Shown in pieces: positions 2,575-17,975 of a stretch of DNA of 17,975 nucleotides. This DNA is from Patescibacteria group bacterium (GTDB taxonomy: Bacteria > Patescibacteriota > Patescibacteriia > Magasanikbacterales > GWA2-37-8). A program made the translations under genes and the position numbers. Every line of letters starts with the position of its first letter. Position 1 is the first letter of the stretch. The notes beneath the pieces were generated by a model, which saw only the letters and a list, made by a program, of their open reading frames with translations, had not been told where the DNA came from and did no database searches. Location of the stretch: positions 1-17,975 of the forward strand of contig SCQK01000003.1 in assembly GCA_004321885.1 (NCBI GenBank), given 5' to 3'.

Positions 2575-3606
2575 TTATTCACGGTATAATTTTCGGACAT
2601 CCACCAGTTCAGGATGCTGGCTTAATATGGTTATCGCGTCACTCATGGTTTTTCCCGAATGAAGCGCGATAATAATTCCTTCGGCGTCAGTCAGAGCCAC
2701 CAGCGATGATTTACCGCTCAATACATTCTCCGTCTCCAAGCCAAACAATTTAATCATCGCTGAATTATTTTTATCATTGGCCAGAAACCAGCCGCCCAAC
2801 TTTTCTATATGCTCGAATAAAAAATCATGCGCCGAATCCGGCTCGGGGTAGCGACAGCCGACCTCTAAAATACAAGCATATTTATTTTCATACGGCTCAT
2901 CAATGCCGACATCATCGTATTTTCTTTTTTGGAGAGCAAAGATATAAAACTTTTTATTTTTAGGAATTTTAGTAACGGAAAATTTGTCCAACTCATTTGA
3001 TTTAATAGAATCACCAGGCTTCAAAGGCGCTGTTCCCCCCACTTTAAGAATTCCGAATTTATTTATCCCATTAAGAAAATTAAAATTTGCCAAATTTGGA
3101 TAGAACCTCAAAATAAATAATACGTCCTTCAATCCCCTGTTTGGAAACATACCGGCAATTCTGCCTTCGTGATTTCCAACAATAACAAGTGATTTAATAT
3201 GCTTATTTTCGGGAAGATCAAGACCAAAAAATTCTTCGTCCGTTGCTTGATATGTATCCTCCACTTGCAGCCAGCCACCCATAGTTTGTATCAAAGCGCC
3301 GTCAACGCCGCAATCTTCGTTTATGCACCAGGTGCCCGGTTCTGCCACGCTCACATAAAATTTTTGCCCAGCGGGTATCTTTAGGTGGGGAGCAAAAGTG
3401 GTATCGCCAGGCCCGCCCGGCATTTTGCTTCCAATTGTTAACGAGTCAATCTTTGACGGATTTTCCCACGAGCGATTAATTTTTCGCACGCTGCCTTCCG
3501 GTAATTGGGTGTATGGTTGAATAACAGAGAAAATTACAATAAAAGCAAGGAAAATAATAACTAGGCCGAGAACAACCCATTTAGATTTACTAAAGCCACC
3601 CATCAT
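2575..3606 (-). CDS. hypothetical N-terminally membrane-anchored extracytoplasmic protein, 343 aa
   Basis: An N-terminal hydrophobic segment (WVVLGLVIIFLAFIVIFSVI) follows a short basic stretch. The start lies 3 nt after the upstream gene's stop, so the two are probably translationally coupled. No confident family was identified. An isolated GNHE tetrapeptide is not enough to call a metallophosphatase. Confidence 0.55.
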   Translation of the reverse strand: MMGGFSKSKWVVLGLVIIFLAFIVIFSVIQPYTQLPEGSVRKINRSWENPSKIDSLTIGSKMPGGPGDTTFAPHLKIPAGQKFYVSVAEPGTWCINEDCGVDGALIQTMGGWLQVEDTYQATDEEFFGLDLPENKHIKSLVIVGNHEGRIAGMFPNRGLKDVLFILRFYPNLANFNFLNGINKFGILKVGGTAPLKPGDSIKSNELDKFSVTKIPKNKKFYIFALQKRKYDDVGIDEPYENKYACILEVGCRYPEPDSAHDFLFEHIEKLGGWFLANDKNNSAMIKLFGLETENVLSGKSSLVALTDAEGIIIALHSGKTMSDAITILSQHPELVDVRKLYRE

Positions 3607-14231: not shown

Positions 14232-15350
14232 ATGATAAAAAAAATCCTGTTTATCAGTTGTTCGGCCGGTTCGGGCCATATTAAAGCCGCCGAGGCCCTA
14301 CATCTGGCCTGTGCTAAAAAATACCCGCAAATCCAATCGTGGCACTTCAATATTTCCGACGACTGGAATTTTCTTCTGCGCCATTCAGTCACCACTCCTT
14401 ATGAATTCGCCTTAAAGCATTACCCGGCGCTTTTCGGCGCGGCCTACAAACTCACCGACAGCGCCCCCCTCACCAAGGCGGGCCAGCTCTTTAATTTTTT
14501 GCTCCGTTTCGGCGTGCAAAAACATTTGGATAAAATAAGCGAGTTCGGCCCGGAGGCCGTGGTCTATACCCACTTCATCCCGGCGCTGATGCTGTCTAAA
14601 TTTTTGGACGCGCCGCAATACATGCTCGTTACTGATTATTACGCGCACAAAATTTGGCGCGTGCCAAACATGAAAGCGTTTTTCGTGCCGACCGAAGAAA
14701 CCAAAAAAAGCATGGGCAAATTCGCGCCCGCTTGCGCGATTACCGGTTTACCAGTAAGCCCGGAATTCAAAAAAGTAAAACCCATCGCGGAGCTAAAAAC
14801 AAAACTGGGCCTGACAAACGACCAGCCGGTTGTTTTATTTATGCCGACGGTTCCCGGAAAAGTGGATATTGGGAAAGTGGTGCTGTCATTGCGAACGGAA
14901 CGAAGCGGAGTGAAGCAGTCCCCCGCGATTGCGGATGGGATTGCTTCGCCCTATCGGGCTCGCAATGACAAACAGCTAAACATTATTATTATCCTCGGAA
15001 AAAACCAAGGGGATATCGCGCCTTCTGAAAATTTACGGGTCATTAAGCCGGTCCCAAACATAGACGAATACATGCGCATTGCCGACGTCATCGTCACCAA
15101 AGCCGGGGGTATGAGCATTACCGAAATCGCCTATTTGCGCAAGCCAATGCTCATCATCAACCCTATTCCGGGCCAGGAAGAATACAACGCGAAAATTTTC
15201 TGCAAGCTTGGCTACTGCCTCGTTGCCCGCGACAACGACGAACTGGAAGCAAAAATAAAAGCCGCTCTAAGCGGCCAACTTTTCTTCAAGGCGCCGCCGC
15301 TACAGGATGCGGCGGAAAAAATTTTGAACACGATTTTTGGGCAGGGGTAA
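14232..15350 (+). CDS. GT28-family glycosyltransferase of the MGDG-synthase/UgtP (diacylglycerol glycosyltransferase) type
   Basis: N-terminal ILFISCSAGSGHIKAAEAL (cf. UgtP LILTANYGNGHVQVAKTL), central MLVTDYYAHKIWRVPNMKAFFVPTEE, and C-terminal VTKAGGMSITEIAYLRKPMLIINPIPGQEEYNA (cf. [33 protein letters not shown]). Confidence 0.75.
   Translation: MIKKILFISCSAGSGHIKAAEALHLACAKKYPQIQSWHFNISDDWNFLLRHSVTTPYEFALKHYPALFGAAYKLTDSAPLTKAGQLFNFLLRFGVQKHLDKISEFGPEAVVYTHFIPALMLSKFLDAPQYMLVTDYYAHKIWRVPNMKAFFVPTEETKKSMGKFAPACAITGLPVSPEFKKVKPIAELKTKLGLTNDQPVVLFMPTVPGKVDIGKVVLSLRTERSGVKQSPAIADGIASPYRARNDKQLNIIIILGKNQGDIAPSENLRVIKPVPNIDEYMRIADVIVTKAGGMSITEIAYLRKPMLIINPIPGQEEYNAKIFCKLGYCLVARDNDELEAKIKAALSGQLFFKAPPLQDAAEKILNTIFGQG
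14884..14970. repeat. 87-bp element bounded by 11-bp inverted repeats TGTCATTGCGA/TCGCAATGACA, inserted in-frame within the glycosyltransferase CDS
   Basis: Its ends share TGTCATT/AATGACA with family A. It is 87 bp (29 codons), encoding LSLRTERSGVKQSPAIADGIASPYRARND in the inter-domain loop. That loop is about 21 aa longer than the same loop in UgtP. Confidence 0.5.
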
Positions 15351-15354
15351 ATTC

Positions 15355-15822
15355 CTATTGCCTTCTCTCGTCCAGCCCCTGACTCTCGGGCTGGTAATTG
15401 GGCTGGATATAGACGCCTGACTGATTGATGTCTTCGTAGCGGTTTAGCGCCAGCTTGATGGCAAATGTGGTGATGGACCAGGCGGCCAAAATAATAATGA
15501 GCCCGATGACAGAATTAAACATCCATTTTTTCGCTTTAGTCACCTGCTCGTCGTTGCCCCCGGCCGTCATCCACAAAACTCCGGCATAGATGATAATGAC
15601 AACCATGAGCAGTCCCACCAGGCTCAACATAATGCGAATCATTCCGGCCGCGGTGATGCGCGGGTCCACTGGTTCGCCATAGCCCGCGCCTTTTTGGCCG
15701 CCGGCGGCCTGAAACTGGTTGCTGATATCCGCGCCCACGCTTTTATTTACGTCCGCGCTAAAAACAGGCGCCGCGAAAGCGAAGAGGGAAACGAGGAATA
15801 GTAAAATAATTATTTTACGCAT
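15355..15822 (-). CDS. VirB2/TrbC-like pilin family protein (paralog 1 of the tandem array)
   Basis: Signal peptide MRKIIILLFLVSLFAFAAPVFSA, then core LSLVGLLMVVIIIYAGVLWMTAGGNDEQVTKAKKWMFNSVIGLIIILAAWSI. Polar C-terminal tail with no Cys. Start is moved to the ATG at 15822, which overlaps the upstream stop as TGAtATG. Confidence 0.75.
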   Translation of the reverse strand: MRKIIILLFLVSLFAFAAPVFSADVNKSVGADISNQFQAAGGQKGAGYGEPVDPRITAAGMIRIMLSLVGLLMVVIIIYAGVLWMTAGGNDEQVTKAKKWMFNSVIGLIIILAAWSITTFAIKLALNRYEDINQSGVYIQPNYQPESQGLDERRQ

Positions 15823-15823
15823 A

Positions 15824-16339
15824 TCACCACAAATTGCTCCAAAAATTCTTGGCCGAGCCGGTAAAGCCCTTGCCAAAACCCTGCCAAAATCCGCCGGTCT
15901 GGGCCCCGGCGCTTTGGCCCACCTGCCCGGCGCCGGGCTCGGTGACCCGAAACACGCCCATTAAAATAAAGGCGGTCAGGCTATAGGCCGCCACCACGAT
16001 AATCAGGCCGACAACCGAAGAGCGGATAATTTTTTGCGCCTTTTCTACGCGCTCGTCATTGCCCCCGGCTGTCATCCACAAAATGCCAGCGTAGACAGTC
16101 AGTATCAAAAAAACAGTGCCTGTGAGCGACAAAATCACCCGAATTATCCGGCCTACATTTTCGGACAAGGTGGTGTCTGTCACGTTTGTTTCAAAACCGC
16201 CGGTGCCGGCCACATTGGAAGCCATCCCGCCCGGGCCAATGCCGATATCGGGCGCGGCCAAGACCATCGTGACGGATAAAAAGAATAGAGAATAGAGAAT
16301 AGAGAATAGAGAGACGAAGAAAATAATATAATTTTTCAT
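15824..16339 (-). CDS. VirB2/TrbC-like pilin family protein (paralog 2) with a Gly/aromatic-rich C-terminal tail
   Basis: MKNYIIFFVSLFSILYSLFFLS signal peptide, encoded by 4x GAATAGA. Core LSLTGTVFLILTVYAGILWMTAGGNDERVEKAQKIIRSSVVGLIIVVAAYSL. Start is at the ATG at 16339; the listed ORF start at 16447 is an upstream extension. Confidence 0.75.
   Translation of the reverse strand: MKNYIIFFVSLFSILYSLFFLSVTMVLAAPDIGIGPGGMASNVAGTGGFETNVTDTTLSENVGRIIRVILSLTGTVFLILTVYAGILWMTAGGNDERVEKAQKIIRSSVVGLIIVVAAYSLTAFILMGVFRVTEPGAGQVGQSAGAQTGGFWQGFGKGFTGSAKNFWSNLW
16283..16310. repeat. 4 perfect tandem copies of the heptanucleotide GAATAGA within the signal-peptide coding region
   Basis: 16283-16289, 16290-16296, 16297-16303 and 16304-16310 are identical. 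On the coding strand, (TCTATTC)4 encodes SILYSLFSI. Confidence 0.9.
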
Positions 16340-16343
16340 AATG

Positions 16344-16907
16344 CTATAAGGGTGAGCAATCCTGCGCGCAACTACTAACCGGCTGTCCCTGACAAGTGGA
16401 GGGACTTTGGCCGACATAACAAGTTCTACTTTCGAAAACGCCTCCATTAATTTTTACAACACAACAACCAGCATCATTTTGTGAACCGCTTGTCTGCTGA
16501 TTTTGTTGCTGTGACGCTGCGCCGCCGGATGAATTACTCCCGCCCATCTTCGTGGTCACAAAATACGTAATCGCGTAAGCCGACAAAGTGATAAACAAAC
16601 CGATAATGCAGGCCTTGATTATCTTATGCGCTTTTTCCACTTTTTCCTGCTCGCCCTGGGCCGTCATCCAAAGAATGCCGGCATAAACCATTAAAATCAA
16701 AAATAAAGTGCCCACCAGCGACAAAGCGGTTTTAACCACCGTGCCCACCGTGGTGGAAAGCTCTTTTTCCAGGCCAACGTCTCCGACCGCGTTGTCCAAA
16801 GTTTTCATGGCATTGCCCAATCCCTTTTGCGCCAGAGCATCGCCGGACAAAAAGAATAGCGAATAGAGAATAGGGAATAGAGAAACGAGGAAAATAATTT
16901 TTTTCAT
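16344..16907 (-). CDS. VirB2/TrbC-like pilin family protein (paralog 3) with a Cys-rich C-terminal domain
   Basis: MKKIIFLVSLFPILYSLFFLS signal, core LSLVGTLFLILMVYAGILWMTAQGEQEKVEKAHKIIKACIIGLFITLSAYAI. A Ser/Gln-rich linker leads to a tail with 6 Cys (CCVVKINGGVFESRTCYVGQSPSTCQGQPVSSCAQDC). Confidence 0.75.
   Translation of the reverse strand: MKKIIFLVSLFPILYSLFFLSGDALAQKGLGNAMKTLDNAVGDVGLEKELSTTVGTVVKTALSLVGTLFLILMVYAGILWMTAQGEQEKVEKAHKIIKACIIGLFITLSAYAITYFVTTKMGGSNSSGGAASQQQNQQTSGSQNDAGCCVVKINGGVFESRTCYVGQSPSTCQGQPVSSCAQDCSPL
16854..16881. repeat. degenerate heptanucleotide tract (GAATAGC GAATAGA GAATAGG GAATAGA) in the signal-peptide coding region
   Basis: Same position and register as 16283-16310 in the adjacent paralog. 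The two flanking ~60-bp gene 5' ends are about 85% identical. Confidence 0.8.
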
Positions 16908-16926
16908 ACATATACCCCTCTCATTG

Positions 16927-16948
16927 CCCCTCCCTTAAAAGGGGGGGG
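16927..16948. repeat. family B hairpin CCCCTCCC-TTAAAA-GGGGGGGG upstream of pilin paralog 3; contains a G8 tract
   Basis: G8 tract at 16941-16948. Lies 20-40 nt upstream of the ATG at 16907. Confidence 0.55.
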
Positions 16949-16970
16949 ATAAAGGGTGAGGTTTTAAAAA

Positions 16971-17564
16971 TCATTCATGACAACACACATTATCAACGCC
17001 GCCCGGACATAAACCCGACTCTTTAACTTTTGGCGGTAAACAGCTGGCGGCAGGGCCGCAAGAGCCAGTGGAAGAATACTCGCATTTCGTAATACAATTG
17101 CCACTTCTACAAACACTATTGTCACCGCATTTTGTATTATCGTTCTGTCCTTGGCAAGACGCCACTTGCCCTCCCGCGCCGCTCCCCCCGCCACCCCCCA
17201 CCAGATTGGTAAACACAAAGCGCGTAATGGCGTAGGCGGCCAAAACTATCACCAAGCCGATTATCGCCGTTTCCATTATCTCCTTACCCTTCTCCGCTTT
17301 TTCCGGCTTACCCAAGGCTGTCATCCACAACACGCCGGCGTACAGAATAAGCCCGAAAAAAATAATGCCGATGAGCCCCAGGCCCACGCCGATAATGTCG
17401 CCGATAAGTACCGGCACTGTTTTTTGGCTGATGGGCAGTTTGGAAAGCTCGGCGTTGTCGGCCGCGGTCTTTAAGCCGTATTTATCCTGCGCCAAAACAG
17501 CGGCGGCGGATAGAAGGCCGGTGATCAGCACAAAAATAAGGATTATTTTTTTTGTCAGTGACAT
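16971..17564 (-). CDS. VirB2/TrbC-like pilin family protein (paralog 4) with a Cys-rich C-terminal domain
   Basis: MSLTKKIILIFVLITGLLSAAAVLAQ signal, core IIGVGLGLIGIIFFGLILYAGVLWMTALGKPEKAEKGKEIMETAIIGLVIVLAAYAI. A Gly-rich linker leads to a tail with 10 Cys (…CQGQNDNTKCGDNSVCRSGNCITKCEYSSTGSCGPAASCLPPKVKESGLCPGGVDNVCCHE). Start is at the ATG at 17564; the listed ORF to 17696 runs through leader repeats. Confidence 0.75.
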   Translation of the reverse strand: MSLTKKIILIFVLITGLLSAAAVLAQDKYGLKTAADNAELSKLPISQKTVPVLIGDIIGVGLGLIGIIFFGLILYAGVLWMTALGKPEKAEKGKEIMETAIIGLVIVLAAYAITRFVFTNLVGGGGGSGAGGQVASCQGQNDNTKCGDNSVCRSGNCITKCEYSSTGSCGPAASCLPPKVKESGLCPGGVDNVCCHE

Positions 17565-17576
17565 AGTTATACGTTG

Positions 17577-17661
17577 GCTCCATAGTCCCCGCAGGGGCTG
17601 TGGAGCCAGCTTGCAACTTGCAACACGGCTCCACAGTCCGCCTTTGGCGGAACTATGGAGC
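17577..17661. repeat. family D hairpins (GGCTCCAYAG ... CTRTGGAGCC) plus direct repeat CTTGCAA x2 in the pilin leader
   Basis: 17577-17608 GGCTCCATAG-TCCCCGCAGGGG-CTGTGGAGCC and 17626-17661 GGCTCCACAGT-CCGCCTTTGGCGG-AACTATGGAGCC. Confidence 0.75.
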
Positions 17662-17678
17662 CACCCGTGAAAGTATTT

Positions 17679-17777
17679 CCCTACAGAGGGTTGCACGCGC
17701 GACCCCGACTGTGGATTCCTGCTTTCGCAGGAATGACAGTTGAAACAGGAACGCGCGCGCGAACCCTCTGTAGAGGG
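17679..17777. repeat. nested palindromic element: outer IR CCCTACAGAGGGTT..CGCGCG / CGCGCGCG..AACCCTCTGTAGAGGG around a family-A core (17713-17738)
   Basis: The core GGATTCCTGCTTTCGCAGGAATGACA is identical to 2454-2479. The outer arms are about 22 bp. Confidence 0.75.
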
Positions 17778-17790
17778 TTCCCATATTAAA

Positions 17791-17975
17791 CTAAGGCGTA
17801 ACAGGCGTGCCTCCGGCTCCGGTTGTCGCCGAAACCAAAGACTTCAGCACAAAGTTGGCCAAGGCGTAAGCCGCGAAAATAATAATCAGACCGATAATGC
17901 CCGAGAAAATCCATTTCTTGCCCTGGGTAACTTTCTCGTCATTGCCGCCGGCCGTCATCCAGGTAAAGCCGCCGA
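17791..17975 (-). CDS. VirB2/TrbC-like pilin family protein (paralog 5), N-terminus beyond the window
   Basis: The minus-strand frame gives GGFTWMTAGGNDEKVTQGKKWIFSGIIGLIIIFAAYALANFVLKSLVSATTGAGGTPVTP* with a TAG stop at 17791-17793. No start lies in the window, so it is absent from the ORF track. Confidence 0.7.
   Translation of the reverse strand, partial: GGFTWMTAGGNDEKVTQGKKWIFSGIIGLIIIFAAYALANFVLKSLVSATTGAGGTPVTP

Follow-up and report, generated by a model that had tools for sequence, protein, structure and literature searches.

In Neisseria the opa loci contain CTCTT/CTTCT tracts of 5-24 units, and a locus with 1-4 units counts as non-variable (PMC5953494). In Escherichia coli K1 the (AAGACTC)n tract of neuO comprises 3-53 units among 64 genomes (65.6% OFF), and variation in its length can be measured within one culture (PMC13001214). 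Heptamer arrays of the unit TAACTGA adjoin start codons in Beggiatoaceae, Cyanobacteria and Bacteroidetes (PMC4679880). A study based on 3,035 Patescibacteria genomes described arrays of 2-11 divergent genes for VirB2-like pilins, 441 arrays in 383 assemblies; of 1948 assemblies with both VirB4 and VirB2-like pilins, only 1135 have a pilin gene near virB4 (PMC12102498). Pilin variation in such arrays has so far been a matter of speculation in the literature, and no paper linking Patescibacteria with phase variation was found. The present analysis concerns an array of this kind on contig SCQK01000003.1 of a Patescibacteria group bacterium. The contig, complete as given in a metagenome-assembled genome and 17,975 nucleotides long, is referred to as the window. 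One of its pilin genes, P2, contains a perfect tract of the heptamer TCTCTAT in its signal-peptide coding region, and the adjacent paralogue P3 contains a degenerate one. The explanation favoured, with a probability of about 0.7, is that the P2 tract is a low-copy microsatellite born by slippage, tolerated in a weakly constrained signal-peptide core and copied between paralogues, and not a high-frequency switch.

Read directly, the plus strand at 16283-16310 is (GAATAGA)x4, as the initial annotation of this DNA had stated, and the tract was also delimited by Tandem Repeats Finder (TRF; Table 1). Read on the coding strand, the unit becomes TCTCTAT, which corrects the plus-strand wording used in that annotation. 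The degenerate copy in the neighbouring paralogue (GAATAGC/GAATAGA/GAATAGG/GAATAGA at 16854-16881) reads exactly as it had been given. The P2 tract begins 27 nt past the ATG and occupies nucleotides 28-58 of the coding sequence (codons 10-19, SLFSILYSLF), and the P3 tract encodes SLFPILYSLF. Both are in an N-terminal hydrophobic segment preceding a cleavage-type motif, LA↓AP or LA↓QK; the translations, an alignment with 31 relatives and the PF18895 scores agree with the annotated location inside the signal-peptide coding region of two adjacent pilin genes. Judging from the alignment, the signal-peptidase site is likely after residue 28, at LA↓(A/G)P(D/N)I. A two-unit 14-mer, with up to 2 mismatches, was matched 7 times in the window, always inside the P2 and P3 tracts, and the mean in 200 shuffles was 0.04, no shuffle reaching 7. 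The number of perfect tracts of the P2 type expected in the 18-kb window is ~1e-10 to 1e-9, and together with the shuffle counts this excludes a chance origin.

Seven nucleotides are not divisible by three, and the frameshift that had been predicted for the gain or loss of one unit was reproduced by simulation as a truncated P2. Counts of 1, 4 and 7 units keep the gene in frame and counts of 2, 3, 5, 6 and 8 produce stops after 44-58 codons, the products for 3 and 5 units having 50 and 51 residues. At the present count of four both P2 and P3 are intact open reading frames (ORFs), again as annotated. In all three frames the sense strand of the unit is free of stops and yields no residues other than S, L, F, I and Y, with SLFSILY as the periodic peptide; its reverse complement contains TAG. 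The signal peptide of P2 is ~5-7 residues longer than most of those in the 31 aligned relatives and fills gap columns of the alignment, an excess that fits a gain of 21 nt, equivalent to three units.

This anatomy resembles that of the opa signal-peptide pentamers, a parallel already drawn in the initial annotation, and that of the 5' heptamer of neuO. As in opa, the P2 tract is pyrimidine-rich and non-triplet, encodes the hydrophobic core of a leader, belongs to a multi-copy surface-protein family and has its frame set by the unit count. As in neuO, the repeat is a translated 7-nt unit in the 5' end of the ORF and expression needs an in-frame count; unlike neuO, it encodes a signal peptide. 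The P2 repeat is an unproven new instance of a known anatomy, the non-triplet repeat in a leader-peptide coding region. The opa tracts are variable between loci and strains and often out of frame, in contrast with P2, which has four units, a P3 counterpart of equal length and no variant found. Four copies are at the bottom of the unit range of proven phase-variable loci.

The stop of P3 is 4 nt before the start of P2 and the stop of P2 is 1 nt before the start of P1. A terminator-like hairpin is located 3' of P1, where it likely marks the end of the pilin operon. Given the tight spacing and this hairpin, the pilin genes are probably co-transcribed and translationally coupled. The initial annotation proposed a phase-variation switch. 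In a true contingency locus of this kind, slipped-strand mispairing at elevated frequency would toggle P2 between ON (4 units) and OFF (3 or 5 units), modulate P1 by coupling and vary the displayed pilins, with P3 as a locked-ON derivative. In its favour are the 31 perfect nt of a non-triplet simple-sequence repeat, located inside the ORF and near its start, the loss of full-length product with a change of one unit in the simulation, and the multi-paralogue surface-protein family, a typical target of phase variation. Unit numbers differing between paralogues or orthologues and OFF alleles, which characterize contingency loci as well, were not observed, apart from one longer, in-frame class in a Levybacteria family.

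P2 and P3 share a 55-nt segment around the tract (Table 1), in which sliding identity is 0.90-0.93 compared with 40-77% over the rest of the genes, and their longest perfect matches are ~13 nt. The tract is of equal length in the two genes despite the 9% divergence of the segment, and the P3 copy differs by two substitutions, at the same position within units 2 and 4. P1 contains a single GAATAG (15781-15810) and no repeat, and shares the LVSLF codons with P3. It had been annotated as retaining relics of the tract; with one GAATAG it may instead represent the unexpanded state. From these comparisons, the tract would have arisen once and the signal segment would then have been copied between the neighbours P2 and P3. 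A one-off conversion between the two appears to have happened. A recombination cassette for the shuffling of paralogues was considered and rejected, since 55 nt with perfect runs of ~13 nt are too short for efficient homologous recombination. The same measurements bear on an assembly artefact, in which the unit number or the similarity of P2 and P3 would come from mis-assembly of short reads across paralogues. The contig is metagenome-assembled and ends inside the pilin array, and contig ends are also where many heptamer arrays of other assemblies are found. Against this, the 31-nt tract is shorter than a sequencing read, the ~13-nt perfect matches are too short to mislead an assembler, and both genes are intact and in frame, which makes the artefact extremely improbable.

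Variants of the locus were sought in several collections. The closest of the 119 other homologues of P2 listed by a protein search is 56% identical, and the P2 signal peptide was identified in none of them; the sequence is therefore lineage-specific and not a conserved functional module. The exact P2 protein had no record in the assembly index, and a locus pattern formed by the 5' flank and two units had no match in JGI metagenome contigs. No strain-level relative of the source organism, which has been sampled once, was present in the databases searched, nor was any variant allele of the P2 locus. A 42-residue query for the signal peptide alone returned no candidates and missed P2 itself as well, so that this search is uninformative.

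A scan for ~3.3 units of TCTCTAT, with one genome per prokaryotic species, identified at least 120 loci (L001-L120). Those listed belong to many phyla and comprise 3-31 units. Most of the listed arrays are non-coding, either intergenic or just upstream of genes, and in Chloroflexota and Bacillota loci (L082, L093 and L107) they end from a few to ~30 nt before start codons. Signal-peptide cores formed by ~4 units were identified in unrelated proteins of other phyla (L020, L086, L058, L079 and L042/L085), and TCTCTAT appears to have been tolerated repeatedly as a signal-peptide core. Among the loci listed, the only gene with a long ORF in a possible OFF phase beside an array was that of L040, a doubtful candidate. 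Arrays with similar flanks in one genome differ in unit number, 14 vs 18 in L003 and 6 vs 4 in L045/L065. Further examples of the listed arrays are L018 and L039.

The Levybacteria protein carrying the heptamer in its signal peptide belongs to the TrbL/VirB6-like membrane proteins, and some members of its family match PF04610. Five orthologues (L042, L085, L203, L204 and L205), with proteins 57%-100% identical to the query, have one tract length at the DNA level and differ in the tract by synonymous and non-synonymous point changes, that is, by decay through substitution. A second length class (L201 and L206) has gained one unit together with compensating indels, which makes it 9 nt longer and leaves it in frame. 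No OFF alleles were found in this family, all the orthologues inspected at the DNA level or over the full N-terminus being ON; truncated orthologues, considered as OFF alleles, were rejected as GTG-start gene-calling errors. Slippage occurs over evolutionary time in the Levybacteria family, yet the tracts are length-stable and always ON. In the 3' half of the signal region of the same five orthologues the synonymous sites are near-invariant and the rest of the gene diverges; the near-invariance extends over the QSVSAQ codons, which are outside the repeat, as well as over the heptamer tract, and selection on the protein does not account for it.

Conservation at synonymous sites, both in the Levybacteria tract and in the non-repeat flank 3' of it, is among the points in favour of a function at the nucleotide level, either as an unstructured pyrimidine-rich stretch aiding translation initiation or as the binding site of a heptamer-recognising protein, as proposed for start-codon arrays elsewhere. 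No Shine-Dalgarno sequence is visible before P2, which starts close to the stop of P3; the region is predicted to be unstructured, and the GC content of the signal region is 32% vs 53% for the gene. The TCTCTAT arrays before the start codons of L082, L093 and L107 resemble the TAACTGA arrays of Beggiatoaceae, and the P2 tract shares with the latter the tandem 7-nt units, the (TCTCTAT)n arrays of other phyla often ending just before a start codon. TAACTGA arrays, however, are intergenic and form many sets per genome, unlike the P2 tract, which is translated inside the ORF and not upstream of it and has a single companion in 18 kb, at the paralogous position. The P3 copy is substituted, the 5' regions of every pilin gene in the window are AT-rich without needing the repeat, and no listed homologue shares the tract sequence. 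A nucleotide-level function is regarded as very unlikely. An RNA element at the tract was rejected, having neither an Rfam match nor a predicted structure, and a programmed ribosomal frameshift site was rejected as well, since TCTCTAT does not fit the slippery heptamer X XXY YYZ. The tract strand is predicted to be unstructured and has no secondary structure able to stabilise slipped intermediates.

The pilin survey comprised 80 metagenome loci (L121-L200) and the window. Among the 458 pilin ORFs identified there, a start could be assigned to 386. Perfect repeats with a unit of at least 4 nt were identified in the first 105 nt of three genes only: P2, a gene of L180 (ATTGTTTT x3.75) and one of L162 (TCTT x3). 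None with a unit of at least 5 nt was found in the remaining 141 kb of the surveyed pilin genes, and a perfect simple-sequence repeat with a long unit is present in only 2 of the 386. The octamer tract of L180 (627-740) recurs, degenerate but no different in length, in the related locus L160 (434-550 / 2979-3090), where it belongs to another paralogue and precedes a different mature domain; the true orthologue of the L180 gene in L160 has a signal peptide without the repeat. Here, too, a signal segment containing a repeat has been swapped between paralogues. Homopolymers (A8/T8-9) are at about tenfold higher density in the 5' ends of the 386 genes (66 in 40.5 kb) than in the remainder of these genes (22 in 141.6 kb), probably owing to AAA (Lys) and TTT (Phe) codons. 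Upstream of pilin genes, (AAATAGT)x4 was identified ~50 nt before a start (L199, 2264-2292), (AAAATTT)x3 directly before an ATG (L159, 613-634) and (AGAAT)x3 after a G/C-rich hairpin (L197, 703-718).

In the explanation favoured here, the P2 tract would be a low-copy microsatellite to which replication slippage gave rise within the hydrophobic core of a Sec-type signal peptide. Three features would let the tract persist: the unit is stop-free in every sense frame and specifies no residues but Ser, Leu, Phe, Ile and Tyr; a run of about ten of these makes a workable core; and only 1, 4 or 7 units keep the frame. The segment with the tract would then have been copied between the adjacent P2 and P3, by gene conversion of the 5' end or by partial duplication, and the tract would have changed afterwards by point substitutions only. 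A slip of one unit could inactivate P2 and, through the tight coupling, would probably lower P1 translation as well. With four units mutability is expected to be low, and such a slip would amount to an occasional loss-of-function mutation and not to a frequent, programmed switch.

Several observations weigh against this explanation. Permissive screens flag phase-variable candidates at 3 or more units when the unit has 6-9 nt, and the P2 tract, with four copies, passes that cut-off. When imperfect repeats are allowed, non-triplet repeats are present in 5 of the 386 5' windows and in none of the 1132 internal windows (Fisher p=0.001; p=0.016 when the two genes of the window are excluded), an enrichment for which a purely neutral view accounts only via relaxed constraint. 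L042 and L085, from two Levybacteria species, are identical over 15 consecutive codons, including the tract and the non-repeat 3' flank, whereas 87 of their 172 codons differ, which indicates nucleotide-level constraint or homogenisation, neither of them required by slippage and tolerance. Length variants of the P2 tract may also occur at low frequency. The 5' enrichment and the conservation of synonymous sites in Levybacteria keep both the switch and the nucleotide-level function alive.

For the switch, the screening cut-off and the 5' enrichment are joined by the simple-sequence repeats just upstream of pilin starts in other arrays (L199 and L159), by the purity of the Levybacteria tract, kept across two species, and by the one event of slip plus compensation seen in that family. 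On the other side, proven loci such as neuO and opa have many more units, differing between strains; the P2 and P3 tracts are equal in length; the Levybacteria orthologues are equal in length, gain interruptions and are all in frame; and the scarcity of perfect long-unit repeats among pilin genes does not correspond to a family-wide strategy. The switch is disfavoured by the equal length of P2 and P3, the length-stable Levybacteria tracts, the low unit number and the absence of OFF alleles. Of what the initial annotation proposed, the unit length, the location, the frame arithmetic and the degenerate neighbour stand; the switching itself is unsupported, the indirect evidence leans against it, and a contingency locus is regarded as unlikely. 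Given the 5' enrichment there is a small chance that the tract acts as a low-rate switch. The broader proposal, a low-frequency slipped-strand switch for one pilin in arrays that generally toggle pilins by short non-triplet repeats in exchanged signal segments, is quite doubtful.

A switch, if real, would give the episymbiotic Patescibacteria radiation its first described contingency locus and could allow these ultra-small episymbionts to vary the pilins displayed towards their hosts. The case also illustrates how replication slippage may build and lengthen signal-peptide cores, how repeat-bearing segments may move between pilin paralogues and how non-triplet repeats cluster in pilin 5' ends. 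The tract offers a concrete and inexpensive target for tests on the reads of existing metagenomes.

The coordinates of the pilin genes and of the elements discussed above are collected in Table 1.

Table 1. Pilin genes, repeat tracts and associated elements in the window.
Feature	Coordinates	Strand	Description	Basis
P0	13059..13472	-	Solitary sixth pilin paralogue, 137 aa, 1.9 kb from the array	PF18895, 42.7 bits
Terminator-like hairpin	15260..15276	-	Hairpin followed by a T-run, 3' of P1	Consensus scan, pattern match only
P1	15355..15822	-	Pilin paralogue, 155 aa	PF18895, 44.5 bits
P2	15824..16339	-	Pilin paralogue, VirB2-like T4SS_pilin, 171 aa, EPN28_00630 (NCBI protein P0001)	PF18895, 34.6 bits
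P2 signal-peptide coding region	16256..16339	-	28 codons, MKNYIIFFVSLFSILYSLFFLSVTMVLA, then APDIGIG	Alignment with 31 relatives
Shared 55-nt segment in P2	16273..16327	-	Signal-peptide codons 5-23	Repeat search, 91% identical to 16844-16898
P2 heptanucleotide tract	16282..16312	-	Perfect, (TCTCTAT)4.4 on the coding strand	TRF period 7, 4.4 copies, 100% matches, score 62
P3	16344..16907	-	Pilin paralogue, 187 aa, Cys-rich C-terminal tail	PF18895, 39.8 bits
Shared 55-nt segment in P3	16844..16898	-	Counterpart of the P2 segment	Repeat search and sliding identity
P3 degenerate tract	16853..16884	-	TCTCTAT, TCCCTAT, TCTCTAT, TCGCTAT, TC	TRF period 7, 4.6 copies, 84%; period 14, 94%
P4	16971..17564	-	Pilin paralogue, 197 aa, unrelated signal peptide, Cys-rich tail	PF18895, 35.5 bits
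P5	17791..17975	-	Pilin paralogue, C-terminal part only, cut by the contig end	PF18895, 33.1 bits

Five PF18895 (T4SS_pilin) genes are in tandem at 15355-17975, where the contig end falls within the array, and P0 is nearby. All six exceed the Pfam gathering cut-off of 26.6 bits. The array is of an already described kind, matching the VirB2-like arrays of Patescibacteria (PF18895/PF04956; PMC12102498), and it contains simple-sequence repeats and a shared signal-peptide segment, two features unmentioned in that work. The genes encode VirB2-like major pilins, and not the pilin tips of the initial annotation. The alignment of P2 with the 31 relatives contains, besides the conserved cleavage-type motif, an invariant YAG..WMT core. 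The AlphaFold model of P2 comprises a helix at 2-28 and two long hydrophobic helices at 56-90 and 95-132, with a predicted local distance difference test (pLDDT) score of ~80-88. A Foldseek search of the model against the PDB gave nothing at E <= 0.001, helical hairpins being too simple to discriminate, and a profile search of PDB sequences with the pilin gave spurious matches only. No match to the VirB4, VirB6 or coupling-protein families was identified among the ORFs scanned in the window, an 18-kb contig ending inside the array.

P3 (16344-16500) and P4 (16971-17160) have Cys-rich C-terminal extensions beyond the pilin core, for example CQGQNDNTKCGDNSVCRSGNCITKCEY...CCHE, and similar tails are present in some database homologues (P0028 and P0061). 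The spacer between P5 and P4 (17565-17790, 226 nt) folds as a pair of very long hairpins (-134 kcal/mol, z = -11.7 vs shuffles), contains four copies of GGCTCCAYAG in alternating orientation, and has neither an Rfam match nor a copy in any fetched locus. Two tRNA genes are located on the plus strand at 13526-13597 and 14113-14184, just past the start of P0, between this gene and a glycosyltransferase gene.

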